Origin: an uncultured Syntrophomonadaceae bacterium
Lineage (GTDB): Bacteria > Bacillota > Dethiobacteria > DTU022
DNA length: 64,000 nucleotides
Direction: 5' to 3'
NCBI GenBank assembly: GCA_964463285.1
Contig: CAYXBB010000002.1
Span: forward strand, 3,628-67,627
Shown here: positions 6,474-63,906 of the stretch, piece after piece
Numbering within the stretch: position 1 is the first letter of the stretch
Layout of the letters: each line of letters opens with the position of its first letter
The notes under the pieces: model-generated
Databases searched by the model: none
What the model was told of the DNA's origin: nothing
Seen by the model: the letters and a program-made list of their open reading frames with translations, nothing else
Made by a program: the position numbers and the translations under genes

Positions 6474-7868
6474 CTAAATCCGGCGCCGTTTATAAGAGGG
6501 GGGAATACCGATCTCCTCCCGGTATTTAGCTATCGTGCGGCGTGAAATAATAATCCCATTCTCTTTTAATCTGCCGACCATCTGCTGATCACTAAGCGGT
6601 TTTAACGGGTTTTCCCGTTCAATCATCTCTTTTAAATAATTCTTAATACTGTGGGACGAATAATCTTTCCCTCTGTCGCCGGAAACTCCGCTGGAAAAGA
6701 AAAATTTCAGCGGGAAAAGCCCCCGGGGGGTTTGAATATACTTGTTGGAGGTAGCCCGGCTAACCGTAGATTCATGGATCCCCAGCCTCTGGGCAACCTC
6801 TCTCAAGGTAAGCGGTTTAAGATGCTTAATTCCCTGATCCAGGAATTCTCGCTGGAATTCGACAATCTGCGAAGTTACCCGGTAAAGGGTCAGTCTGCGC
6901 TGTTCAATGCTTCGGATAAGCCACAGGGCGCTCTCCATCTTGCCTTTAACAAAGCTGACCAACTGCTCATCGTCGGTCCCGGTGCGCAATAGCCGTTGAT
7001 AAAAAGGACTGATGGTCAGGCTGGGGGTACCGCCGTCACTGGCAGTAATTATATATTCTTCACCCACCTTTTCCACCATTAAATCAGGGGTAATATAACG
7101 GGTTTCCTCTCCTTCCCCGTAAATGTTTCCCGGTTTGGGATTAAGGTGATTGCGGATAAAATCGATGGCCACTTGAACCTGTTCCGGCTCGCAGCCCAGC
7201 CGGGAAGATATGTAGCGATAACGGCTGTCGGCAACCGCCGGAAGGTAATTGGTTATTATCTCTTCCACCAGGGGAGGAGGAGATAAGAGAATCCGGTGCA
7301 GCTGTAGCAACAGACATTCCCGGATGTTTCGCCCCCCTATTCCCGGAGGTTCCAGGCCTTGCAAGATATCTAGACCGGCGGTCAGTTCCTTTTCCGTAGC
7401 CCCTATGGAGAAGGCCAGTTCAGCCAGATCACCCCGCAAATAACCGTTGCTGTCAAGATTCCCCACCAAATAGGAGGTAATATTATATTCTTCCCGGGAA
7501 AGCGGCATCAGGTGGAGTTGCTCCATTAGATCACCCTGCAAGGTTTTCCCTTCTCGGGCATAGTTATCAATAGACGGAGGATCCTCTTTGGGGTAAAACG
7601 AGGCAAAACTATTATCAAGGTTGCTATCCCGAAGATATTCCTCCCAGGGAAAATCGTCTGCCTCCGTTTTATCCGGGGTGGTAATATCCTCTTCCTCTTT
7701 TTCCCCGTTCTCCTGGATCTCCAGCACCGGGTTCTCCAGCAACTCTCGCTGCACATATTCTTGAAGTTCTATCCGGGAATACTGCAACATGGAGATAGCC
7801 ATCTTCAGTTGTGGGGTCATGATTAGCTTTTGGGTTTGTTCCAGTTTCAAATGAAAATCTAATCTCAA
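6474..7868 (-). CDS. rpoN: RNA polymerase sigma-54 factor
   Basis: 464 aa, N-terminal region LKLEQTQKLIMTPQLKMAISMLQ and C-terminal RpoN box ARRTIAKYRE. Confidence 0.9.
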   Translation of the reverse strand: MRLDFHLKLEQTQKLIMTPQLKMAISMLQYSRIELQEYVQRELLENPVLEIQENGEKEEEDITTPDKTEADDFPWEEYLRDSNLDNSFASFYPKEDPPSIDNYAREGKTLQGDLMEQLHLMPLSREEYNITSYLVGNLDSNGYLRGDLAELAFSIGATEKELTAGLDILQGLEPPGIGGRNIRECLLLQLHRILLSPPPLVEEIITNYLPAVADSRYRYISSRLGCEPEQVQVAIDFIRNHLNPKPGNIYGEGEETRYITPDLMVEKVGEEYIITASDGGTPSLTISPFYQRLLRTGTDDEQLVSFVKGKMESALWLIRSIEQRRLTLYRVTSQIVEFQREFLDQGIKHLKPLTLREVAQRLGIHESTVSRATSNKYIQTPRGLFPLKFFFSSGVSGDRGKDYSSHSIKNYLKEMIERENPLKPLSDQQMVGRLKENGIIISRRTIAKYREEIGIPPSYKRRRI

Positions 7869-42850: not shown

Positions 42851-43207
42851 GTGTCGGATTTCAACCCCCACGGACAACCTGAGAACAACCGGGTACCGAC
42901 CTTTGATCAGTCAGATATCGAGGCGAATAAAACCATGGCGGGGTTGGCCTACATTCTTTTTTTTCTACCTCTGGTAGTATCCCCCAATTCCCCGTTCGGA
43001 AGGTTTCATGCCAATCAAGGACTGCTGCTGCTCATTTTGGGTATTGCCGGAAATATTATACTTACTTTCTTGCCTTTAATTAACCTGATTCTTTGGCCGA
43101 TTTTCGGATTGTTCGTTCTGGTGTTGTTTGTTATAGGATTGGTAAACGGGTTTGGCGGTAAAGCAAAAGAGCTGCCACTTATCGGTTCCATAAGGTTGAT
43201 AAAATAA
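42851..43207 (+). CDS. Small membrane protein (DUF4870-like), start uncertain (GTG 42851 after GGAGG, or upstream 42755)
   Basis: Three hydrophobic helices, FHANQGLLLLILGI motif; only plus-strand gene in this area. Confidence 0.5.
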   Translation: MSDFNPHGQPENNRVPTFDQSDIEANKTMAGLAYILFFLPLVVSPNSPFGRFHANQGLLLLILGIAGNIILTFLPLINLILWPIFGLFVLVLFVIGLVNGFGGKAKELPLIGSIRLIK

Positions 43208-51174: not shown

Positions 51175-51285
51175 CTACAGCTCTTTGATTTTTTTCCTGG
51201 CTTCCTCAAAGTACCAAAAGGCAACGGCTACCGCACCGATTATGGAAATTGCCCCGAAAATATTATTTAAAACATTCCAGATCAT
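51175..51285 (-). CDS. Candidate 36-aa single-TM micro-protein translationally coupled to the symporter (ATGA overlap)
   Basis: MIWNVLNNIFGAISIIGAVAVAFWYFEEARKKIKEL; start ATG overlaps symporter TGA stop; terminator 44 nt downstream. Confidence 0.35.
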   Translation of the reverse strand: MIWNVLNNIFGAISIIGAVAVAFWYFEEARKKIKEL

Positions 51286-52796
51286 GCTTTAACCCCCTTC
51301 TGTTCTACCACTTCTTTGCCCAGGGCATTGGCAATCAGATATACTACCAGCGCGATCGGCGTAATTATAATAATTCCGTATTCTTGCCAAAGCTCGATGT
51401 TCCCAATCTGGATAACATATACCTCATAAAATTCATTCCAGGTTCCAAAGAAGTTGGTCCAGATATACCAGACAATGGAGCAGATCACACCCACGGCAGT
51501 GGACAAGGTGCCTGCTATTTTTTTGGGGGGAGTTTTGGAAAATGTCCCGAAATAAACCGGGATCAAAGAGGTGGTGATAATTATAGTGGCCTGGAATACC
51601 CAGGCTTCCATCATCCGTTCGAAAAACAAGGCCAGGGCCAATGATATAACCGCCGATATTACAACGCCGATTTTGGTCATCCGTTCGGTCTCTCGGGAGG
51701 TGGCCTGCGGTTTAAAAACTCCCTTGTACAGATCATACCCAAGCACTCCGCCGGCTACCAGAAAATAAGAATCGGCGGTTGACATGGCACAAGCCAGCAC
51801 CCCGGCCAGAAACAGTCCCATCACTCCAACCGGCAAATATTGCCCGGCAATGGCAAACAGTGCCTGATTGGGGGCAACCTCCGGGATAATTTCTAATCCA
51901 ATCGCCGCCGCTCCCAATATTCCTAAAAAAGTTACAATCCAATCAAATGACAACCACAGGGGAATTCCTACAAAAAAAGCCTTCTTGATTTCTTTCGGGC
52001 CTGCAGAAGCAAATATTCTTTGGAAAAAAGCCGGTTCCGCCAATGCTGCAAATGCGGTTAAGGAATAAGCTACCAGTATCCAGGGGGTTAGATAACCTAC
52101 CTCCGCCCGGAAAAAATATTCAAATTCACCGACGTAATTTTCCAGACCTATTATCACCTGGTCATACCCGCCTACCCCGTTCCAGCCCAAAATTAAGGCC
52201 AGGCCTACCGCGATCATCATTACAAAAAACTGAATAAAATCGGTCATAATTACCGCCCACAAGCCCCCGGTCCAAGTATATATTACAATTACCACTGACC
52301 CGATTAAAATTCCCACCCAGATGGGAATCCCGGTAAGCAGGTGTAATAAAAACCCTATGGCCATCATTTCCAGAGAATTGTTGGAATATAGGAATGCTGC
52401 AATGGAGGCAAAGATCCCGGCAACTTTACCATAGCTGTTAAACACAATGTCTTGCATGGTACAATCTTCGGGAAATTTTTCTTTAAATTTGGGGGCTAAA
52501 AAGGCCATGGCAAAATAAAGAGCGGTGAACGGTAAGGCGTAGAAATAGAAAGAGGATATCCCTTCGAAAAAAGATACCTCAGAATCGCCAAACAAAGTAT
52601 CCAACCCGTAAAATGTAGATACCAGGGTAGCCACCAGGAGCGGAGCAGTGATGTTTTTACCGGCCATAAAATAATCGTCAAACCCCTTGGATTTTTTGGA
52701 AAAATAAAATCCCACCCCCAGCATGCCGGCAATGTACAAAACAACGATAATCCAGTCCACTGCATGCAACCTGACTACAATTTCATCCACCTGCAA
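51282..52796 (-). CDS. Sodium:solute symporter (SSF family)
   Basis: 504 aa, about 13 TM, SSF N-terminal signature GxxxxxFxxAGR-like region (YFMAGKN). Confidence 0.85.
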   Translation of the reverse strand: MQVDEIVVRLHAVDWIIVVLYIAGMLGVGFYFSKKSKGFDDYFMAGKNITAPLLVATLVSTFYGLDTLFGDSEVSFFEGISSFYFYALPFTALYFAMAFLAPKFKEKFPEDCTMQDIVFNSYGKVAGIFASIAAFLYSNNSLEMMAIGFLLHLLTGIPIWVGILIGSVVIVIYTWTGGLWAVIMTDFIQFFVMMIAVGLALILGWNGVGGYDQVIIGLENYVGEFEYFFRAEVGYLTPWILVAYSLTAFAALAEPAFFQRIFASAGPKEIKKAFFVGIPLWLSFDWIVTFLGILGAAAIGLEIIPEVAPNQALFAIAGQYLPVGVMGLFLAGVLACAMSTADSYFLVAGGVLGYDLYKGVFKPQATSRETERMTKIGVVISAVISLALALFFERMMEAWVFQATIIITTSLIPVYFGTFSKTPPKKIAGTLSTAVGVICSIVWYIWTNFFGTWNEFYEVYVIQIGNIELWQEYGIIIITPIALVVYLIANALGKEVVEQKGVKA

Positions 52797-52834
52797 TCTA
52801 CCTCCTTGCGTTTAAAAATCGACCATCGGAACCT

Positions 52835-54133
52835 TTATTTTGGTTCGTTAGAGGAAGCTGAGAGCAATTTTTTCATAGCCTCCCGGTCTAGCTTACGCTT
52901 ATATTCCGACTCCATCTCCAAGAGAGCATAAGGATAACTGTATTCATCCATTAGCCGTAAATATGGCTCAGGAGCAAAAGCCTCCGGCCCGAACACCCCC
53001 CTTCCCTGCCATACCCCTTTGCCGATCAGTTCCAGGGTAATAGCCGTTCCGTATGCGGTTTGAGCCACCACTACCTGGGAACCCAAACGCTCCATGGTCT
53101 CCTGGTTATCCAGGCTCTGGTAAATAAAGACTTCCCGATGCAGCCCGTCTTTTTTACCGGTAACATGCACTCCTACGCACATTTTTCCTTTAAGCTTATC
53201 TCCGATATAGGCGGGATTTGGAGCTACCGCTTCCACCACATCCCGAGGTGATAGTTTAATCCCCTGAAAATCTATTTTTTCCTTACGATCCAAACCCAAA
53301 GCTCTCAGAACCTTCATCGCATTTATAATATCATCGCCCAGGGCAATTTTAAACGAAACTTTTTTTAGCCCTTTGTCAATATAGCGCGGCATGAGCACCA
53401 CTTCTTCATGCTCCACCTTCATTAATTTAACCGGGCCGATGCCTTCGGGAAAATAAAATATTTCCGGATCAGCAAACGGTTCCTGAACGTACCAGCCTTT
53501 TTCTCTCTCCCAGGTAACCGGAGGATTTAAAGTTTCATCGATCATGGTCCAGATTGAAAATCCAAAAGCAATTTCCAGCCCTTCGGCGGTTAGATTACCC
53601 CCATCTTTAACTGCAATCTCGTCAAGCTCGTCAAAACAATGTATCTCGGCAAACTTTGCAAACACATCCACCACGCCGGGATCAATGCCGGCTCCAATTA
53701 CCGCCATCAACCCTTTCTGCTGCCATTTGGAATCGGCCTGGAAATTGTAGGAGGCCATCAGTTCCGTATATCCCCGACCGATCGGATCTTCCGGATGAGG
53801 TTCCGACCAGGTCCCTAAATTTATATAATGACAACCCGCCTCAAAAGCAGCATCAAATAAATTTTTGGTCACAAACGGCGCCGCCGTATCCAGGATTAAA
53901 TCCACGCCATGTTTTCGGGCCAGGGCAACTACTTCTGAAATTTCTTGAGCATTAACCGGTTCCGCCGGAAATCTTTCCGGATCACCCACTTTTTGGGCTA
54001 CCTCCCCGGCTCTTTCCAGGTTGTAATCCGCCAATACCATTTTCTGTAACCAGTTACCCCTCTGATCCCGATCCCGAATTATCATGGCGATGGCTTCGCC
54101 TACCCCGCCTGTACCTACCAGCAACACTCTCAT
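52835..54133 (-). CDS. Saccharopine-dehydrogenase-like NAD(P) oxidoreductase, paralog 1
   Basis: 432 aa, N-terminal Rossmann VLLVGTGGVGEAIA, Sacchrp_dh_NADP-like plus C-terminal alpha/beta domain. Confidence 0.75.
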   Translation of the reverse strand: MRVLLVGTGGVGEAIAMIIRDRDQRGNWLQKMVLADYNLERAGEVAQKVGDPERFPAEPVNAQEISEVVALARKHGVDLILDTAAPFVTKNLFDAAFEAGCHYINLGTWSEPHPEDPIGRGYTELMASYNFQADSKWQQKGLMAVIGAGIDPGVVDVFAKFAEIHCFDELDEIAVKDGGNLTAEGLEIAFGFSIWTMIDETLNPPVTWEREKGWYVQEPFADPEIFYFPEGIGPVKLMKVEHEEVVLMPRYIDKGLKKVSFKIALGDDIINAMKVLRALGLDRKEKIDFQGIKLSPRDVVEAVAPNPAYIGDKLKGKMCVGVHVTGKKDGLHREVFIYQSLDNQETMERLGSQVVVAQTAYGTAITLELIGKGVWQGRGVFGPEAFAPEPYLRLMDEYSYPYALLEMESEYKRKLDREAMKKLLSASSNEPK

Positions 54134-54316
54134 TTTTTAAATCCCTCCTTATCAGTTATTGGTGGTATTGGGAAGCATTTGCAATAAGATCTAAACTAAT
54201 AATCTCGTTGGCATCGGGGGACATTTACAACTAGTCTTAAGTATGACAGTTTAGTGATGCGGTTTAACCTTTCAGGCAAGATCATTATTCGATAAATGTT
54301 CGAAATACCCTACTAT

Positions 54317-55639
54317 TTAGTTAATAGAATCTAGCACCTCATCGGTGGAAACATCGGGAAAAGCTGATAACATTTTTTTCATAGTCCCCTGATCTTGCTT
54401 GCGCTTATACTCCGAATCCATTTCCATCAGGCGGTAAGGATATCTGTATTCATCCATGAGTTTTAAAAAAGGTTCCGGGGCAAAAGCCTCCGGCCCAAAC
54501 ACTCCCCGGTCCCGCCAGATCCCTTTGCCAACCAACTCCAGGGTAATGACCGTCCCGTAGGCAGTTTGGGCCACCACCACTTGAGAGCCCAAGCGTTCCA
54601 TGGTCTCCCGATTATCCAGGCTCTGGTAAATAAATACTTCCCGGTGCAGTCCGTCTTTTTTACCAATTACATGTACCCCTACGCACATCTTGCCTTTTAA
54701 TTTGTCTCCAATATGAGCAGGATTTGGAGCTACCGCTTCCACCACATCCCGGGGTGAAAGTTTGATCCCCTGAAAGTCTATTTTTTCTTTGCGATTAAGG
54801 CCAATGGCTCTCAGAACCTTCATGGCATTAACAATCTCATCGCCCAGAGCAATTTTAAACGTGACTTTTTTTAGCCCCTTATCTATGTATCGCGGCATGA
54901 GCACCACTTCTTCGTGTTCCACTTTCATCAGTTTAACCGGACCTATGCCTTCCGGAAAATAAAATATTTCCGGATCAGCAAACGGTTCCTGAACGTACCA
55001 GCCTTTTTCTTTTTCCCAGGTGACCGGGGGATTTAAAATCTCGCCAATCATAGTCCAGATTGAAAAACCAAAAGCAATATCCAAACCTTCGGCGGTCAGG
55101 TTCCCACCATCTTTAACTGCAATTTCCTCCAGCTCATCAAAGCAGTATATTTCAGCAAACTTGGCAAATACATCCACCACGCCGGGATCAATGCCGGCTC
55201 CGATTATTGCCATCAATCCTTTTCGTCGCCACTTAGAATCGGCCTGGAAATTGTAGGAGGCCATCAGTTCCGTATATCCCCGACCAACCGGATCTTCCGG
55301 ATGGGATTCAGACCAAGTCCCCAGGTTTATGTAATGGCAATTCGATTCAAAAGCCGCATCAAATAAATTTTTGGTCACAAACGGCGGTGCCGCATCCAGA
55401 ATCAGGTCCACATCATGCTTGCGGGCCAGGGCTGCTATTTCGGAAACCTCCCGAGCATCAACCGGTTCTGCCGGAAATCTTTCCGGCTCACCCACTTTTT
55501 GAGCTACCTGCTTAATTCTTTCCGGATTATAATCCGCCAGCACCATTTTTTGTAACCATTTGCCCCCACGATTCCGATCGCGAGCTATCATGGCGATAGC
55601 TCCGCCCACCCCGCCTGTACCTACCAGTAGCACCTTCAT
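54317..55639 (-). CDS. Saccharopine-dehydrogenase-like NAD(P) oxidoreductase, paralog 2 (tandem duplicate)
   Basis: 440 aa, about 85-90% identical to paralog 1 over full length; long identical nucleotide runs. Confidence 0.75.
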   Translation of the reverse strand: MKVLLVGTGGVGGAIAMIARDRNRGGKWLQKMVLADYNPERIKQVAQKVGEPERFPAEPVDAREVSEIAALARKHDVDLILDAAPPFVTKNLFDAAFESNCHYINLGTWSESHPEDPVGRGYTELMASYNFQADSKWRRKGLMAIIGAGIDPGVVDVFAKFAEIYCFDELEEIAVKDGGNLTAEGLDIAFGFSIWTMIGEILNPPVTWEKEKGWYVQEPFADPEIFYFPEGIGPVKLMKVEHEEVVLMPRYIDKGLKKVTFKIALGDEIVNAMKVLRAIGLNRKEKIDFQGIKLSPRDVVEAVAPNPAHIGDKLKGKMCVGVHVIGKKDGLHREVFIYQSLDNRETMERLGSQVVVAQTAYGTVITLELVGKGIWRDRGVFGPEAFAPEPFLKLMDEYRYPYRLMEMDSEYKRKQDQGTMKKMLSAFPDVSTDEVLDSIN

Positions 55640-55830: not shown

Positions 55831-55846
55831 GGCAAAATATTTACCA
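55831..55846 (-). promoter_or_regulatory. Weak candidate sigma-54 promoter upstream of SDH-like genes
   Basis: Minus strand TGGTAAATATTTTGCC has GG-N10-GC spacing but poor -24 (TGGTA vs TGGCAC). Confidence 0.2.
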
Positions 55847-56588: not shown

Positions 56589-57908
56589 TCAGGTTTTTAT
56601 AAATTCATCCGCCAAATTCAAACTTTCGTCTACCGCATCCATCCCCAAATTCAATTCCTGTTCATTGATGGAAATCGGCGGAGCTATAAACATGATATTC
56701 CAACGCGGATAGACATAGATGCCCTTTTCGTTCAGAAAATTATTGATCCGGCCCATAATTCCCGGATCGGGGCCATTCCAGGGAGCTATCGGCTCCTTGG
56801 TCCGGCGATCTCTTACCAGCTCTATCGCCGAGAACAGGCCGATGGAGCGCACATCGCCCACCGAGGGATGTTTTTCTTTTACATTTTCCAGCCGTTTTTT
56901 CAGCAACTGCCCCATTTTTGCAGAATTCTCGATCAGGTTCTCTTCTTCGTAAACCTGAACGGTTGCCACACCAGTGGCACAGGCCAGAGTATGGCCGCTA
57001 TAGGTTAAACCGCACCACAGCATGCGGTCGTCAAAATGATCGGCAATTTTCTCGTTAACCACTACCGCCCCCAGGGGGACATAACCCTGGGTAATCCCCT
57101 TGGCCATGGTCATAATATCGGGGATTACATTCCAGTTGTTCACCCCAAACCATTTGCCGGTTCGACCCCAACCGGTCATTACCTCGTCGGCAATCAGCAG
57201 TACACCAAATTCATCACAGATCTCCCGAATCCGAGGCAAATATTCGGGGGGCGGAACAAATATACCGTTGGTTCCGGTTACCGGCTCCACAATAAAGGCG
57301 GCTACGGATTTAGGATCTTCATACAACATAATTTCTCGAACATGCTCCGCGCACTCCAGCCCGCAGCCGGGGTAGGTGTGCCCAAAGCTACAGCGATAGC
57401 AATAAGGTTCAAACACATGGACCACCCCGGGAATCCCCGGCTCTACCGGCGGGCGGCGGGGATCGCCGGTCAGGGTAATCGCTCCAAAGGTAGCCCCGTG
57501 GTATGAGCGATAGCGGGCGAGTATTTTGAATCTTCCGGAATACAGTCGGGCAACCTTTATGGCATTATCATTAGACTCGGCTCCGCCCAGGGTAAACAGT
57601 ACTTTGTTCAAATCTCCCGGGGTGTGTTCAGCCACCTTCTGAGCCAGTCTGGCCCGGGGTTCACTGGCATAAGAAGGACTAATATAACAAAGCTTATCAG
57701 CCTGCTCCTTTATAGCTTCAATTACCCGGGGATGCTGGTGTCCGATGTTGGTATTTATTAGTTGGGATGAAAAATCCAGATATTTTTTGCCCTCCCGATT
57801 CCAGAACCAACACCCCTCACCACCTACTATCTCCTCATAAATGTTTTTGCTCTGGACAGACCACGATCTCAACACATATTTTCGTTCCAGTTCTCCGACG
57901 GAATTCAT
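56589..57908 (-). CDS. Class-III (omega) aminotransferase, PLP-dependent
   Basis: 439 aa, DEV..G.GRTG and PLP-lysine region MTMAKG; resembles amine:pyruvate / GABA-type aminotransferases; 4-nt overlap with AOR gene. Confidence 0.85.
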   Translation of the reverse strand: MNSVGELERKYVLRSWSVQSKNIYEEIVGGEGCWFWNREGKKYLDFSSQLINTNIGHQHPRVIEAIKEQADKLCYISPSYASEPRARLAQKVAEHTPGDLNKVLFTLGGAESNDNAIKVARLYSGRFKILARYRSYHGATFGAITLTGDPRRPPVEPGIPGVVHVFEPYCYRCSFGHTYPGCGLECAEHVREIMLYEDPKSVAAFIVEPVTGTNGIFVPPPEYLPRIREICDEFGVLLIADEVMTGWGRTGKWFGVNNWNVIPDIMTMAKGITQGYVPLGAVVVNEKIADHFDDRMLWCGLTYSGHTLACATGVATVQVYEEENLIENSAKMGQLLKKRLENVKEKHPSVGDVRSIGLFSAIELVRDRRTKEPIAPWNGPDPGIMGRINNFLNEKGIYVYPRWNIMFIAPPISINEQELNLGMDAVDESLNLADEFIKT

Positions 57909-59809
57909 TTCGAGCCTGCCTCCTTAAAATTTGATCGCTTTTCTGCTCCCAGCCAACCTAGTTTCAATCCCTGGAGGGTTTCCGGGCGGGGGATACCCTC
58001 CACGGTCCATCCTCTTAATCCGTAATATTCGAACAACATTTTACCCAGATGGGGCAGGCTGCCGGCAGCTGCTCCTTCCAGGCGGTCATGCACCAGCAAG
58101 CGGGGAGGCAGGGTATCATTTTTGCGGCTGATGCCTAGTTTCACGTTTATGGATCTTTTCAGGTTAAACAACCGTTCCCCGGTGTTCAGCAGTTCCTTGC
58201 CGTCTACATCCCACCCGGTTACCCTGGACAACCAGGCGGCGATTTCGTCGGGAATTACATGACCCCTGATCAAGAACTTACACAACCCCAGGGCGTTAAA
58301 TATGATCATGTAATCCTGCATGGTCTTAGCCAGCAGAGGCTTTCCCTCCATGCTATGGGGATCATATTCCGCAGGAATTCCAATCAATGTGCCCGGATAA
58401 CTTAAATTTTCATTAAAATAGGTAAGTCCCTCCAGGTGACAGGCTCCCCGGTTGCCGGTAGCATAAACAATGGCCATGCTGGTGAACGCCCGGGGATCAT
58501 GAAACGGGAATTCCAGTCCCTTGCTCTCTACAACAAATTCTGCTGCCAGTGAACCGAAGTGCGATGCCGCCCGTTTAACTCCCTCCGCCAGGTAAAAACC
58601 CAACTTTTCCCGGCGGGCTATCTGTTGTATGAGAACCAGTATTGCTTCTCCGCTTCCCCAGGACAAATCGAGCCCCCCGGTATCCACTCCCTTCAAAAGA
58701 CCATGCTCATTAAGTTCCATAGCAAACGCAACCGCATTGGCAGTGGAGATCACGTCCACTCCCAGGCGGTTACACAGGTCATGGGCGGCAATAATGAAAT
58801 TCGGGTCATCGTTTAAACAAAGTGCTCCGAATCCGGCAACGGTTTCATACTCCGGCCCGTGAGCAATGGTGCCCTGGTGAGGTCCCACCAACACTTTCAT
58901 ATCCTTGCCGCAACGGATCGGGCAGGCAAAGCAGGTCACATGTTTTACCCGCAAGCCTTTCGCCACCATGGCCTGACCGGATACTCTTGCCGCTCCTTCC
59001 TCCCAGCTGCCGCCGGTCCAGTTGCGAATAGGAAGATCACCCAGTTTTTCCACCGCCACCACCCCGCCGGCGGTCCCAAAATCGGTAAGTCCCCTGGCTT
59101 TTTCTCTGATTTTAGACAGAGATTCTCTCCTGGCTTCAGCCAGGCCCCGGCTGTCGAAAATAGCCGGTACCGGACCGGAAGGAAGCACGGCGATCGCCTT
59201 TAAATTCTTGGAACCCATTACTGCGCCCAGACCGCAGCGGCCGGCAGCCCGGGAATCCTTTCCGTCAATAATGATGGAAGCAATCAGCACCCGGTTTTCC
59301 CCGGCTGGGCCGATAGCAGCGGTATTTATCTTTTCCCCCAGTTCCTGTTGAATTTTCTCCTGCGTGCGGTAAGTGTCCTCTCCCCAAAGAGCGGTAGCAT
59401 CTTTAAATTCCAGCCCCTGTTCCCCGAAGTAAAGGTAAACCGGGCGATCCGCCTTGCCGGTAATGATCAGGCCATCGTAGCCGACAGCCTTAAAATCCGC
59501 CGGCCACCGCCCCCCTACAATGGCCTCCGCCCATATCCCGGTAGCCGGGGATTTCCCACAAAACGCTGCCTTGCTGGCTGCAGGTACATTTAATCCGGTC
59601 AGAATCCCTGAAAAGACCAGTAGTGCTGCCTGTTCACTTAAAGGATCCGGTTCGTAATAACCCCGTTCATAAAACAGCTTGGCAGATAAACCGCTGCCTC
59701 CCAGGTAATCCCGGTAATCCTGTTCTGGAATAATTGTTTCAGTTACCTCACGAGAGGTTAAATTAATTTCCAGGATTTTTCCATAATATCCATATCCCAT
59801 AGCCCTCAC
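57905..59809 (-). CDS. aor: Tungsten-containing aldehyde:ferredoxin oxidoreductase (AOR family)
   Basis: 634 aa, AOR N-terminal domain and [4Fe-4S] Cys motif region; AAGGAG RBS. Confidence 0.9.
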   Translation of the reverse strand: MRAMGYGYYGKILEINLTSREVTETIIPEQDYRDYLGGSGLSAKLFYERGYYEPDPLSEQAALLVFSGILTGLNVPAASKAAFCGKSPATGIWAEAIVGGRWPADFKAVGYDGLIITGKADRPVYLYFGEQGLEFKDATALWGEDTYRTQEKIQQELGEKINTAAIGPAGENRVLIASIIIDGKDSRAAGRCGLGAVMGSKNLKAIAVLPSGPVPAIFDSRGLAEARRESLSKIREKARGLTDFGTAGGVVAVEKLGDLPIRNWTGGSWEEGAARVSGQAMVAKGLRVKHVTCFACPIRCGKDMKVLVGPHQGTIAHGPEYETVAGFGALCLNDDPNFIIAAHDLCNRLGVDVISTANAVAFAMELNEHGLLKGVDTGGLDLSWGSGEAILVLIQQIARREKLGFYLAEGVKRAASHFGSLAAEFVVESKGLEFPFHDPRAFTSMAIVYATGNRGACHLEGLTYFNENLSYPGTLIGIPAEYDPHSMEGKPLLAKTMQDYMIIFNALGLCKFLIRGHVIPDEIAAWLSRVTGWDVDGKELLNTGERLFNLKRSINVKLGISRKNDTLPPRLLVHDRLEGAAAGSLPHLGKMLFEYYGLRGWTVEGIPRPETLQGLKLGWLGAEKRSNFKEAGSK

Positions 59810-59938
59810 TCCTTATGTTTCTTCGGGAAGCATCCGAATAAAAGTAGGAAATAATATTCCTAATTCCATAAGATGCCAAAGACTATACTCGAAGAAGCTA
59901 TGTTCTCGATTTTAAAAATTTAAGTCCAATTATATATC

Positions 59939-59955
59939 TTGCAATTACTATGCCA
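59939..59955 (-). promoter_or_regulatory. Sigma-54 (-24/-12) promoter for the AOR-aminotransferase operon
   Basis: Minus strand TGGCAT-AGTAA-TTGCAA: GG and GC exactly 10 nt apart, about 118 nt upstream of AOR start; sigma-54 gene and a bEBP are in the window. Confidence 0.6.
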
Positions 59956-60018
59956 CCCCCGAGCAGCTCTTTTCCAACAAAGCCCGGCTACAAGCGCACT
60001 GCAGGGGGCTGCAAATAA

Positions 60019-60031
60019 AATTCCACTGGAA
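60019..60031. promoter_or_regulatory. Perfect 13-bp palindrome ATTCCACTGGAAT, candidate enhancer (UAS) for the sigma-54 activator
   Basis: Located about 65-90 bp upstream of the -24 element; second imperfect dyad GAACTGG-N7-CCAGCTC at 60119-60143. Confidence 0.4.
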
Positions 60032-60454
60032 TATATCTAATGCCAGTAAAAAAAAAACCCTTGCAGCAATATCGCTTCAATCCCACAAACTAACCCGAGC
60101 ACTATTGTAATCTTTTTTCCGAACTGGGTTTGTTCCAGCTCGGTAGCGTCTTTCTCAACATATTTTGTATAAAAATCAACTGTAAATAACACCTGCGCCT
60201 CAAACCTTGAAAATATGTGTGGGAAGAAGATTAAACTCAATTTTAGATCCCCGTTTCCATTTCACTACCGATCTCTTTGATGCTTACAAAAGCCGAGTGT
60301 AAACTTTAAATATATCAGTTACAGTTATAACCAGAACTGTTTATAAACAATTCTATTTATAAAATTGCTACGAAGGTAGGCTAAAAAGTGTACAGATATC
60401 CTGACATCAAATAATATCAGACTTGCCACAACTCAGTTATGACTTGCTTGATGG

Positions 60455-62131
60455 CTATTTGCTTATATTTTTTTTATTTGAGAAAAATGTACGGCGCAGG
60501 TATTTTCGGATCTTGCGATTGGCACTACTCTGGCTAATACCTAAAGCATGTGCAACTTTGTACGAGCTTCCTAGCTCACGATAGCTCTTAATAATCAGAT
60601 CCTGTTCAACTGCAGCAAGGATTTCCGCCAGAGTTTGCCCTGGGGGGGCTGCATGGGAGATAATATGGGCGGGTAATTGTTGAATAGTTACGGTATCGGA
60701 GGAAGACATTACTATAAGATGTTCCATAGTATGTTTTAATTCCCTAATATTACCCGGCCAAGCATAAGAAGAAAGTACTTCCAAAGCTTCTGAACTTAAT
60801 TGCAAAGAGCGCTTATACTTGCGGGCGTATTGGGTAAGAAAATGGTTGATTAATATCGGAATATCCTCCCTCCGCTCATTAAGGGGCGGGATATTTATTG
60901 AAAGAACATGTAAACGGTAGTATAGGTCCTCTCGAAAAGTGCCTTTATAGATCATTTCTCTTAAGTCACGGTTAGTGGCGGCAATAATATGCACGTCAAT
61001 ATGCTTTACCTCGTTGGAGCCAATCGGGGTGAAGGTCTGCTCTTCGATTACCTGCAATAGCTTGGGTTGTAAGTCTCCGGGAATTTCAGCGATCTCATCT
61101 AGAAAAATAGTTCCCCCGTCAGCTAAAGTAAAAAGGCCCGCTTTTCCCCGGGGACTGGCTCCAGTAAAGGCACCAGGTTTATAGCCGAATAATTCCGACT
61201 CCAACAGTTCTCTAGGTAGGGCGGCACAGTTAACTTTTAAATATGGCTTTTCCTTGCGCTCGCTCAGGCGATGAATATATTTTGCCACCAGATCTTTACC
61301 GGTGCCGGAATCCCCTAACAGCAAAACGGTGCTATCGGTGCGGGCTATTTTTTGGGCCATGTTCAGAATATCGACCATGGGGGACTCGGCTGAGAATACC
61401 GGATATTCTCCTTTTCCCCGAGAAACCCGGGGTTGGCGTTTTTCCCTTGTACCTGAAACTATTGCTTTTATCTGCCGGTAGCTATTTTTCATATCGTCTA
61501 AGGCAGTAATATCTCGCGAGTTACAAATAACCATTTTAATTTCCCCTTCTGGAGAAAAAACCGGAGAAGCAGTGATCATCAACCGCTTGCCCAGTGCAGT
61601 TTCTTGCTCAATGGTAATCGATTTCTTCTCTTTTAAAACCAGGGGGGTTACCGCCGGGTGGTAGATGCCTCGTTCTTCAAGCTCCCAAACACTTTTTCCG
61701 ATAAGCTCGTCTACCGGCACACCATAATTTTTCTCGCTAACCGGGTTAGCATATATTGTAATCCCCTGGCCATCAGTAACATAAACCTCGTCACAGGCAT
61801 TATTCATGATCGCCTGGTAGAAGGCTATTTCTTGACGCATCCGGTCAATCTCTAAATCGGTTTTTCTGTTTCCCGGGGAATATTTTTCCACCAGTGCCAG
61901 GTAATAGTTACCGGCCGGGTCTGAAATCTCACTAAGGTCAACATGCCATATTTCTTGCGAATGACAAAAGGAAGCAAAGGCGTTATTTCTAAAAGGAGTA
62001 CCCGGCAACATGGTGTTCCAACCCACCCCATGATCAATCGGTAATATACCCTTCAGCGCTTTATGATATAAGAGCACTTTGCCTTTTTCATCAAACAATA
62101 TAGGTAACAAAGGGTTGTCAACCTTTAACAT
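60455..62131 (-). CDS. Sigma-54-dependent transcriptional activator (PAS sensor + AAA+ + Fis-type HTH; no receiver domain)
   Basis: 558 aa, Walker A GDSGTGK, GAFTGA sigma-54 contact motif, C-terminal HTH. Confidence 0.85.
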   Translation of the reverse strand: MLKVDNPLLPILFDEKGKVLLYHKALKGILPIDHGVGWNTMLPGTPFRNNAFASFCHSQEIWHVDLSEISDPAGNYYLALVEKYSPGNRKTDLEIDRMRQEIAFYQAIMNNACDEVYVTDGQGITIYANPVSEKNYGVPVDELIGKSVWELEERGIYHPAVTPLVLKEKKSITIEQETALGKRLMITASPVFSPEGEIKMVICNSRDITALDDMKNSYRQIKAIVSGTREKRQPRVSRGKGEYPVFSAESPMVDILNMAQKIARTDSTVLLLGDSGTGKDLVAKYIHRLSERKEKPYLKVNCAALPRELLESELFGYKPGAFTGASPRGKAGLFTLADGGTIFLDEIAEIPGDLQPKLLQVIEEQTFTPIGSNEVKHIDVHIIAATNRDLREMIYKGTFREDLYYRLHVLSINIPPLNERREDIPILINHFLTQYARKYKRSLQLSSEALEVLSSYAWPGNIRELKHTMEHLIVMSSSDTVTIQQLPAHIISHAAPPGQTLAEILAAVEQDLIIKSYRELGSSYKVAHALGISQSSANRKIRKYLRRTFFSNKKNISK

Positions 62132-62752: not shown

Positions 62753-63490
62753 TTAAGGCCGGCACAACTTTACCTCTCCCCAGACCGCCATTTTATCCTC
62801 ACAAATGATTAGGGCTCCACTGAGCCCCTCCAGGCGGCGGGCAAATGCCAGCGTCGGCTGCAAATCCTCGCTGCTCTGAACTAGATTGCCCAGGGCGGTG
62901 GCCGCCGCATCGGCCAGCGCCGCCGAGGGAGCAAGGGCCACCGCCGCATCCGCTCTGCCCAGGCTCAGGGAATGGCCCACCGTGCCCGAGGAGGTGCATA
63001 TTCCCAGGGGAGTTTGACCGGGATCGACAGAAATAGCCACTTTTCCGCTCAAAGGAGATTTTCCGGCAAATATTCCCACCGCTACCGGTTCGACAACTTT
63101 TAAAAAAATATCCCCTCCATTTTCAACAATAACCTCTGTCGAAATTTGCCGCAAGCTGTTGCCGACAGATTCCGCCAGAGTACCGGCTACCGCCGCCATC
63201 GGTCCCACCCCCGCCCGGTTGCCGGCCTGGACCATCTTTAAAATCAGGTCGGGAGCCGGTCCTTCTAAAAAATAGGGACGGCAGGTGGTTCTAAAATCGG
63301 GATGCCGGCGGATAAAAGCTTCGATCTGGCGGCGCTGCCGCCAGATCAGTTGTTCGATTTCCCGGGGGAGGGATTCATAAAAGGCCTGCTTGCTGATCCC
63401 TATAAAGAGATCCGTTTCTTTAACCGTAACCGTAAAGGAGGTATGCTTCCGGCCGGCTCCCAGTCGGCAATAGACCCGCGAGGCGTTCAT
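62753..63490 (-). CDS. UPF0280 (ApbE-like, COG2122) family protein
   Basis: 245 aa, glycine/alanine-rich core; adjacency to NIL-ferredoxin as in archaeal homocysteine-biosynthesis clusters. Confidence 0.5.
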   Translation of the reverse strand: MNASRVYCRLGAGRKHTSFTVTVKETDLFIGISKQAFYESLPREIEQLIWRQRRQIEAFIRRHPDFRTTCRPYFLEGPAPDLILKMVQAGNRAGVGPMAAVAGTLAESVGNSLRQISTEVIVENGGDIFLKVVEPVAVGIFAGKSPLSGKVAISVDPGQTPLGICTSSGTVGHSLSLGRADAAVALAPSAALADAAATALGNLVQSSEDLQPTLAFARRLEGLSGALIICEDKMAVWGEVKLCRP

Positions 63491-63906
63491 TTTGGGCTAT
63501 CTAGAAGGATCTCCATGGCCCGCGCCGGGCAGGCTTTGATACAGTGTTCACAGGCCACGCATTTTTCCTCATCGAAGCGGATGGCCATGGAAGGCCTGCT
63601 GATGGCCAGTGCCCCGGTGGGACAGACCAGCGAACAGGCTCCACACTGGGTGCAGCGCTCGGATCTCCAAAAGATCTGCTGCTGCAAATTGGTAATGATC
63701 AGCCCCTGTTCGCGCAGCCAGAGCAGCGCCTGTTGATATTGTTCCCGATCACCGCCGATTTCCAACACCAGCCGCCCCTCTTTGCGGGGGTTGATATCGG
63801 CGCGCAGTATGTTAACCATCAAATCATAATCCTTCACCAGGTGGTAAATAAGCGGTTGCTCCACCACGGAAGCCGGAAAGCGAAAGACCAGTTTATGTTT
63901 AATCAT
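63487..63906 (-). CDS. NIL-domain / 4Fe-4S dicluster ferredoxin protein
   Basis: 139 aa, N-terminal NIL domain, two CxxCxxCxxxCP motifs; GGAGGA RBS. Confidence 0.7.
   Translation of the reverse strand: MIKHKLVFRFPASVVEQPLIYHLVKDYDLMVNILRADINPRKEGRLVLEIGGDREQYQQALLWLREQGLIITNLQQQIFWRSERCTQCGACSLVCPTGALAISRPSMAIRFDEEKCVACEHCIKACPARAMEILLDSPK

Follow-up and report, generated by a model that had tools for sequence, protein, structure and literature searches.

We have analysed a 64 kb stretch of DNA from an uncultured Syntrophomonadaceae bacterium (the window; coordinates are those of this stretch, and (−) denotes the minus strand, on which all of the key genes discussed here lie). The window contains a gene for an aldehyde:ferredoxin oxidoreductase (AOR) followed by a gene for an aminotransferase, and we think it probable, judging from sequence features and comparison with related loci, that these genes are transcribed from a σ54 promoter that is controlled by the product of the adjacent activator gene, acting from distal sites that we refer to as AAGTC boxes. 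A preliminary description of this DNA had proposed the promoter and its activator but had placed the binding sites of the activator on two inverted repeats closer to the promoter. All of the elements it named are present in the sequence at the positions given, and the promoter, the activator gene and rpoN stand as described; it is the assignment of the binding sites that we would revise. The features that carry the argument are as follows.

59955..59940 (−): σ54 promoter core, TGGCAT-AGTAA-TTGCA, with GG at 59954-59953 and GC at 59942-59941 (gggggTGGCATAGTAATTGCAagatatataattgg)
60455..62131 (−): σ54 activator (bacterial enhancer-binding protein) gene, 558 aa, directly upstream of the promoter region
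60430..60445 (−): predicted upstream activating sequence (UAS) box 1, AAGTCATAACTGAGTT, 10 bp past the activator stop codon and 490 bp upstream of the −24 T
60409..60424 (−): predicted UAS box 2, AAGTCTGATATTATTT, 469 bp upstream of −24, its centre 21 bp from that of box 1
57905..59800 (−): AOR gene, the first of the operon (AFOR_N 3e-67, AFOR_C 1.7e-122)
56589..57908 (−): class-III (omega) aminotransferase gene (Aminotran_3 2e-94; PRK06062 557 bits, cut-off 472)
6474..7868 (−): rpoN (σ54) gene (TIGR02395 438 bits, cut-off 277)

The predicted promoter and the adjacent activator gene

The identification of 59955..59940 as a σ54 promoter is well supported. The pattern TGGCAY-N5-TTGCW is matched just once on the two strands of the 64 kb, where 0.22 matches would be expected, and that match is correctly oriented and placed: it lies on the same strand as the AOR gene, 140 bp from the AOR ATG and inside a 654-bp intergenic region. 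The GG and GC doublets are spaced by exactly 10 nt in a TGGCAC-N5-TTGCW-like context, and the element, which with one more base reads TGGCATAGTAATTGCAA (59955..59939, minus strand), agrees at 10 of 12 positions with the consensus for Clostridiales, TTGGCATNNNNNTTGCT (PMC6615313). Taking the C of GC as −12, transcription is predicted to start at ~59929, close to the ~59927 of the preliminary description. Other relaxed matches to a σ54 promoter in the window fall mostly within open reading frames (ORFs); one at 43177..43162 is in an ambiguous region that is covered by ORFs.

The gene directly upstream encodes a protein in which an N-terminal region is followed by PAS, AAA+ and HTH_50 (DNA-binding) domains, the AAA+ domain having a GAFTGA loop at residues ~320. 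Its Pfam matches (Sigma54_activat PF00158 2.3e-66, AAA_lid_14, and HTH_50 (PF18024) 3.5e-09) bear out the earlier assignment of this gene as a σ54 activator, and it is the only GAFTGA protein encoded in the window. Likewise, the rpoN gene that had been placed at 6.5-7.9 kb scores well above the cut-off of its family model. Only two contigs, one from NCBI and one from Logan, were found to encode an identical activator protein, and its nearest relatives are 50-62% identical; with the activator as query, a collection of 5.8 billion proteins held no orthologue nearer than 62% identity, and a scan of a genome collection with the whole activator returned one relative, 38% identical.

We compared the window with two sets of related loci. 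The first comprised nine non-redundant homologous loci whose activators are 38-62% identical to that of the window, and all nine have a single copy of TGGCA-N7-TGC in the stretch that separates the activator gene from the next operon. The second came from metagenome contigs that were scanned with the alignment limited to the family-specific helix-turn-helix. Here a promoter lies 145-471 bp after the activator stop codon in L025, L027, L032, L035, L038 and L042, and L030 has a divergent TGGCA-N7-TGC promoter; no promoter was present in the stretch of DNA examined for L028/L029 and L031. Counted as distinct loci other than the window, 12 of 14 relatives carry a TGGCA-N7-TGC promoter next to the activator gene. 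None of the promoter-bearing relatives departs from the GG and GC elements. The AT-rich stretch that follows −12 is TATAAT only sometimes, and its offset shifts.

Candidate binding sites of the activator

The recognition helix of this activator family, SSYKVAxxLGISQSSAxRKIRKY, is nearly invariant across the relatives, the window activator included, where it takes the form SSYKVAHALGISQSSANRKIRKY; the one helix residue that varies is N in the window protein, and the relatives have I, S, T, A, V or C there. In an unbiased count of 6-mers in the relatives' upstream regions TAAGTC came top (9/9 loci) and AAGTCA joint second (8/9), and a count of 9 was attained in 1 of 200 shuffles. The full motif in the relatives, AAGTCA-N4-TGACTT (16 bp), is perfect in L003, L010, L025, L027, L032 and L042. 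When up to two mismatches are allowed, boxes are found 101-381 bp upstream of the −24 T; in most of the loci the first box is ~25-90 bp after the activator stop codon, and three loci (L013, L015 and L025) have two boxes at a spacing of 21 bp.

The window retains this motif at 60445..60409, outside the coordinates covered by the preliminary description. Box 1 has one mismatch to AAGTCA-N4-TGACTT and is the sole site with at most one mismatch in the 64 kb, against 0.13 expected. Box 2 has 3 mismatches, its left half-site being good and its right half degenerate. The direct repeat GCAAGTCW-N13-GCAAGTCW occurs once in the window versus 0.06 expected; AAGTCA by itself has 7 copies in the 64 kb, both strands together. 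A related arrangement is found in L025, which belongs to the closest subgroup and has an activator 60% identical to that of the window. There the promoter lies ~470 bp after the activator stop codon, and L025 1696-2090 has tandem boxes at −381 and −360, 21 bp apart, together with a perfect AAGTCAAAGTTGACTT at −114. Comparison across the family thus favours the AAGTC boxes over the palindromes as the likely enhancer.

In the mechanism that we envisage, each step of which is drawn from sequence and comparison, RNA polymerase with the genome's own RpoN would form a closed complex on the GG and GC elements, and opening of this complex would require ATP hydrolysis by the adjacent PAS/AAA+/HTH_50 activator. 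The activator would most likely be bound to the tandem boxes, 21 bp apart, rather than to the palindromes, and a loop of ~0.45-0.5 kb of AT-rich DNA would bring it into contact with the promoter. Its PAS domain and N-terminal part would probably sense an amine-related signal. We propose such a signal because the relatives control dimethylamine methyltransferase genes, amine-type ABC transporter genes and CN-hydrolase-like genes, and because an AOR-aminotransferase pair ends one such cluster (see below).

Several observations weigh against this reading. The boxes are unusually far from the −24 element (490 and 469 bp), beyond the 100-250 bp at which predicted UAS sites are usually found in Clostridiales (PMC6615313), and from −420 to the promoter the window has no box with up to three mismatches. 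All of the relatives have a box within ~100-170 bp of the promoter, except L015, where there is only a weak box at −163. The right halves of both window boxes are degenerate, the mismatch in box 1 falls within the GACT core, and, with a closest homologue that is 62% identical and a differing helix residue, the specificity of the activator could have drifted. The two AOR orthologues nearest to the AOR of the window share 89% and 86% identity with it and belong to gene sets that also comprise a ThiS-like gene and an aminotransferase; ahead of these sets lie MFS and SSF genes or the end of the contig. Neither orthologue has an activator gene or a GG-N10-GC element upstream, and their upstream DNA is unrelated to that of the window except in the region of the ribosome-binding site. 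There is no true orthologous footprint of the window's intergenic region, nor could there be one when the nearest activator homologue is only 62% identical. Lastly, a scan for σ70 promoters finds a 10/12 match with a perfect TATAAT that overlaps the σ54 promoter.

The preliminary description had held that loss of the GG and GC elements from orthologous loci would count against the promoter. The outcome is mixed, in that the promoter is absent from the loci of the closest AOR orthologues but the activator gene is absent there too. This ties the promoter to the activator cassette rather than to the lineage of the AOR gene, and its absence from the AOR orthologues does not show the window promoter to be spurious.

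Three further elements of the intergenic region bear on where the activator binds and on where transcription begins.

60020..60032: 13-bp palindrome ATTCCA-S-TGGAAT (minus-strand reading ATTCCA-G-TGGAAT, 6+1+6), centre ~71 bp upstream of the −24 T
60119..60143: second dyad CCGAGCTGG-N7-CCAGTTCGG, with 8/9 arm positions complementary
60010..60025 (−): TGGAAT-TTTAT-TTGCA, a second σ54-like element that lies 70 bp upstream of the promoter and has A in place of C after GG as its one mismatch

In the preliminary description the σ54 promoter is real but the activator binds to the palindrome (at about −70), to the second dyad (at about −170), or to both. We consider this placement of the activator unlikely, even though both dyads exist in the sequence and a change of specificity is possible in an activator that differs from its relatives at one residue of the recognition helix. 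The palindrome is no rarer than chance would have it: a perfect 6-1-6 inverted repeat occurs in 23% of dinucleotide shuffles of the intergenic region, and perfect repeats with 6-bp arms and spacers of 0-8 bp average 2.1 per shuffle. None of the 46 other loci retrieved has it, the one further copy being in an identical contig (L001), and its centre is nearer to the −24 T than is every predicted UAS in the relatives. The second dyad has more to commend it, since it falls within the usual 100-250 bp range for a UAS (PMC6615313). It was first described as GAGCTGG-aacaaac-CCAGTTC (60141..60121), and with the longer arms found here its statistics are borderline: for GC-rich arms of 9 bp and one mismatch or none, chance would give 0.08 occurrences, and 6.7% of shuffles reach the observed count. 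The RNA fold around it is not significant. Inspection of the relatives' upstream regions revealed no counterpart of either dyad. Moreover, relatives whose helix is otherwise invariant use AAGTCA-N4-TGACTT, and the window has that motif elsewhere. The dyads may be chance occurrences, sites for another factor or, in the case of the palindrome, part of a weak tandem promoter.

A second possibility accepts the promoter and questions the boxes: these could be a non-functional remnant inherited with the activator gene, with activation occurring from solution, from unrecognised sites or by an activator encoded outside the window. The unusual 0.5-kb distance, the degenerate right half-sites and the lack of a proximal box are all in keeping with such decay, and a gene arrangement unlike that of all of the relatives suggests rearrangement. 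We nevertheless regard this as quite improbable, because two left half-sites have been retained at the 21-bp phase that is typical of the family, because the related locus L025 also has distal boxes, at −381 and −360, and because the 64 kb encodes no second activator.

Two alternatives concern the promoter itself, and to each we give very little credence. In the first, transcription of the AOR operon starts at a housekeeping σA promoter, GTGGCA-16 nt-TATAAT (59956..59929), and the −24/−12 match is coincidental or minor. The overlapping σ70-like match noted above and the lack of a σ54 element upstream of the closest AOR orthologues speak for it, but the σ70 scan is not discriminating (5 sites in 900 bp versus 3.2 expected) and the proposed −35 hexamer, GTGGCA, is poor and separated by a 16-nt spacer. 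TGGCA and TTGC, by contrast, are invariant beside the activator gene in every promoter-bearing relative, and the combination of invariant GG and GC elements with a TATAAT that shifts and is sometimes absent argues against a σ70-like reading. In the second, 60025..60010 would also be used, giving tandem σ54 promoters and a longer leader, and the palindrome, whose right arm TGGAAT is the −24 half of this element, would be merely part of a promoter; the element is on the same strand, 70 bp upstream, with one mismatch where ~0.02 such sites are expected in the intergenic strand (a scaled figure), but it has A instead of the usual C after GG, and tandem σ54 promoters occur in none of the relatives.

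The probable operon, its neighbours and the targets of related activators

The AOR gene begins with an ATG at 59800 that is preceded by an AAGGAG ribosome-binding site. Its stop codon overlaps the start of the aminotransferase gene by 4 bp, which suggests that the two genes are co-transcribed, and they probably form one operon. No moaD/ThiS gene lies between them, and the unit is terminated by a convergent plus-strand gene for a CBS-domain protein. Transcription from the predicted start would give the following leader.

59801..59929 (−): predicted 5′ leader, ~129 nt, with a fold of −34.3 kcal/mol (z = −2.16, modest)

In this fold CAUAGCUUCUUC is paired with the region of the ribosome-binding site and start codon, and the structure could provide translational control. 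An Rfam scan of 59700-60520 gave two sub-threshold chance matches only, with no riboswitch and none of the Moco/Wco type.

The genes that the related activators appear to control differ from those of the window. The usual target is a dimethylamine methyltransferase of the pyrrolysine type (Dimeth_Pyl, split at the amber codon) together with a corrinoid protein. Other targets include a Peripla_BP_6 ABC transporter (L013 and L015) and, in L025, a gene product starting MSRSVRVALIQ that, read from its N-terminus alone, looks like a CN-hydrolase. None of the relatives has an AOR as its first target gene, and the window contains no methyltransferase genes. A connection between the two gene sets is found in L024 (1-12880; GCA_033549065.1, contig JAWSUE010000008.1), a cluster on one strand that is headed by an activator homologue, mtbB (Pyl) and mtbC and continues with a second UAS and σ54 promoter (1627-1819), an ABC transporter, a 357-aa gene, an AOR and two class-III aminotransferases. 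The UAS-like site there is GAGTCAAAAAAGACTC, its σ54 promoter is TGGCATGAATAATGCA, and the AOR is 68% identical to that of the window. The order of genes in this cluster indicates that the AOR-aminotransferase module is part of the gene neighbourhood of the activator family; in the window the module is joined directly to the activator.

Somewhat tentatively, we suggest that the activator gene, the AAGTC boxes and the σ54 promoter make up a portable cassette. The cassette would belong to an undescribed group of PAS/HTH_50 activators that recognise AAGTCA-N4-TGACTT, and would have been re-targeted among amine-catabolic operons of uncultured Bacillota (dimethylamine methyltransferase, ABC transporter, CN-hydrolase-like, and AOR with aminotransferase), acting in the window from ~0.5 kb.

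We also note that in L004 (9119-13293) genes for making pyrrolysine and charging its tRNA (PylS-like, PylC-like ATP-grasp, PylD and radical-SAM PylB-like) adjoin the activator homologue; this locus has a divergent, σ54-driven mtbB, and a fragment with an AFOR_C match lies directly downstream of the activator homologue.

The remainder of the intergenic region holds other features. Between the AAGTC boxes and the promoter, at 60320-60367, there are dense, overlapping, AT-rich inverted repeats with three TTATAA cores ~15 bp apart. With arms of 9 bp and up to one mismatch allowed, the intergenic region as a whole has 12 inverted repeats where 1.26 are expected; nine of these belong to the 60320-60367 cluster, which may bend the DNA or bind another protein. 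A small ORF at 60037-60240 (−), also between the boxes and the promoter, would encode 67 aa from a TTG (60240) or 51 aa from a GTG (60192), with a hydrophobic C-terminus. It is called as a gene in the Logan contig and has no NCBIfam match; we think that it is probably non-coding. A search for a terminator between the activator gene and the promoter gave one weak site with a 5-bp stem, a count at chance level, and no significant hairpin precedes the T10 tract at 60056..60047 (z = −1.39). The 650-bp spacer was also compared with all of the loci by blastn and tblastx in case it held what is left of a lost gene, for example mtbB or a gene for a transporter, and nothing meaningful was returned.

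On the far side of the AOR operon (51282-55639 (−)) lie two saccharopine-dehydrogenase-like paralogues and a gene for a sodium:solute symporter. The paralogues are 87% identical to each other (tblastn, 413 aa) and show weak similarity to carboxynorspermidine synthase (175 bits versus a cut-off of 800). Together with the symporter and the omega-aminotransferase they hint at the catabolism of polyamines or other amines. A weak σ54-like sequence, TGGTAA-ATATT-TTGCC, is present at 55832-55846 (−), ~195 bp 5′ of the first saccharopine-dehydrogenase-like gene (ATG 55639); there is no AAGTC box near it, so co-regulation with the AOR operon is unsupported. On the 5′ side of the activator gene, at 62753-63906 (−), a gene for a ferredoxin with a NIL domain and 2x[4Fe-4S] overlaps a 245-aa gene without a Pfam match, and this pair has no evident link to the promoter.

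Relation to known σ54 systems

If the assignments made here are right, they amount to a corrected regulatory prediction for an uncultured Firmicute, in which an AOR/aminotransferase pair is switched on by a σ54 activator whose predicted binding region is 60409-60445 and not the palindromes. They would also link a single family of activators, with a single DNA motif, to several gene sets for anaerobic amine degradation, including bacterial pyrrolysine-dependent dimethylamine methyltransferases, and this link could help to annotate the substrates that these AOR enzymes oxidise. In the literature searched, coverage of which was incomplete so that this is not proof of absence, we found no description of a group of activators with HTH_50 and AAGTCA boxes, and nothing specific on σ54 together with mtbB or pyrrolysine.

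Among the named models the best-scoring for the window activator is that of PrdR, the activator of proline reductase (NF041552), which has the same PAS-AAA+-HTH layout. The window activator is not a PrdR equivalog, its score being 390 bits against a cut-off of 795 and its target genes being different.

Enhancers of the NtrC/NifA type consist of tandem dyad sites, two helical turns apart, that lie upstream of a −24/−12 promoter and act through DNA looping. The predicted boxes of the window differ in distance, ~0.5 kb as against ~100-200 bp, and the sensor of the window activator is a PAS domain and not a receiver or GAF domain. A site for IHF is not expected in a Firmicute.

The system that most resembles that of the window in its target is the AorR regulon, in which σ54 control of aor-moaD has been predicted in Clostridium and Geosporobacter (Nie et al. 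2019, PMC6615313). Both have an aor gene behind a σ54 promoter and an adjacent activator gene in a Firmicute. AorR, however, belongs to groups with a helix-turn-helix of Fis type (PF02954) and a TGT-N10-12-ACA UAS (PMC6615313), whereas the window activator has HTH_50 (PF18024), with PF02954 not reported, and a family motif of AAGTCA-N4-TGACTT, so that it is set apart by both domain and motif. The second gene of the window operon is, furthermore, an aminotransferase and not moaD, and the nearest relatives of the activator lie beside methylamine genes. By its HTH_50, the AAGTCA motif and the absent moaD, the window activator would fall outside the AorR group. A likeness of another kind, by promoter type and target only, is to the betaine/trimethylamine methyltransferase cluster of Sporomusa sphaeroides KIAC, which is SigL-dependent and has σ54 promoters (TGGCA-N6-TTGC) and activators (PMC12456013). 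There σ54 controls methylated-amine genes, and relatives of the window activator adjoin dimethylamine methyltransferase genes, although the window itself is without methyltransferase genes. With σ54 control of aor and of methylamine clusters in Firmicutes already published, the pairing of a σ54 promoter with an adjacent activator is an ordinary arrangement; what is unusual in the window is the spacing of ~0.5 kb between the predicted boxes and the promoter.

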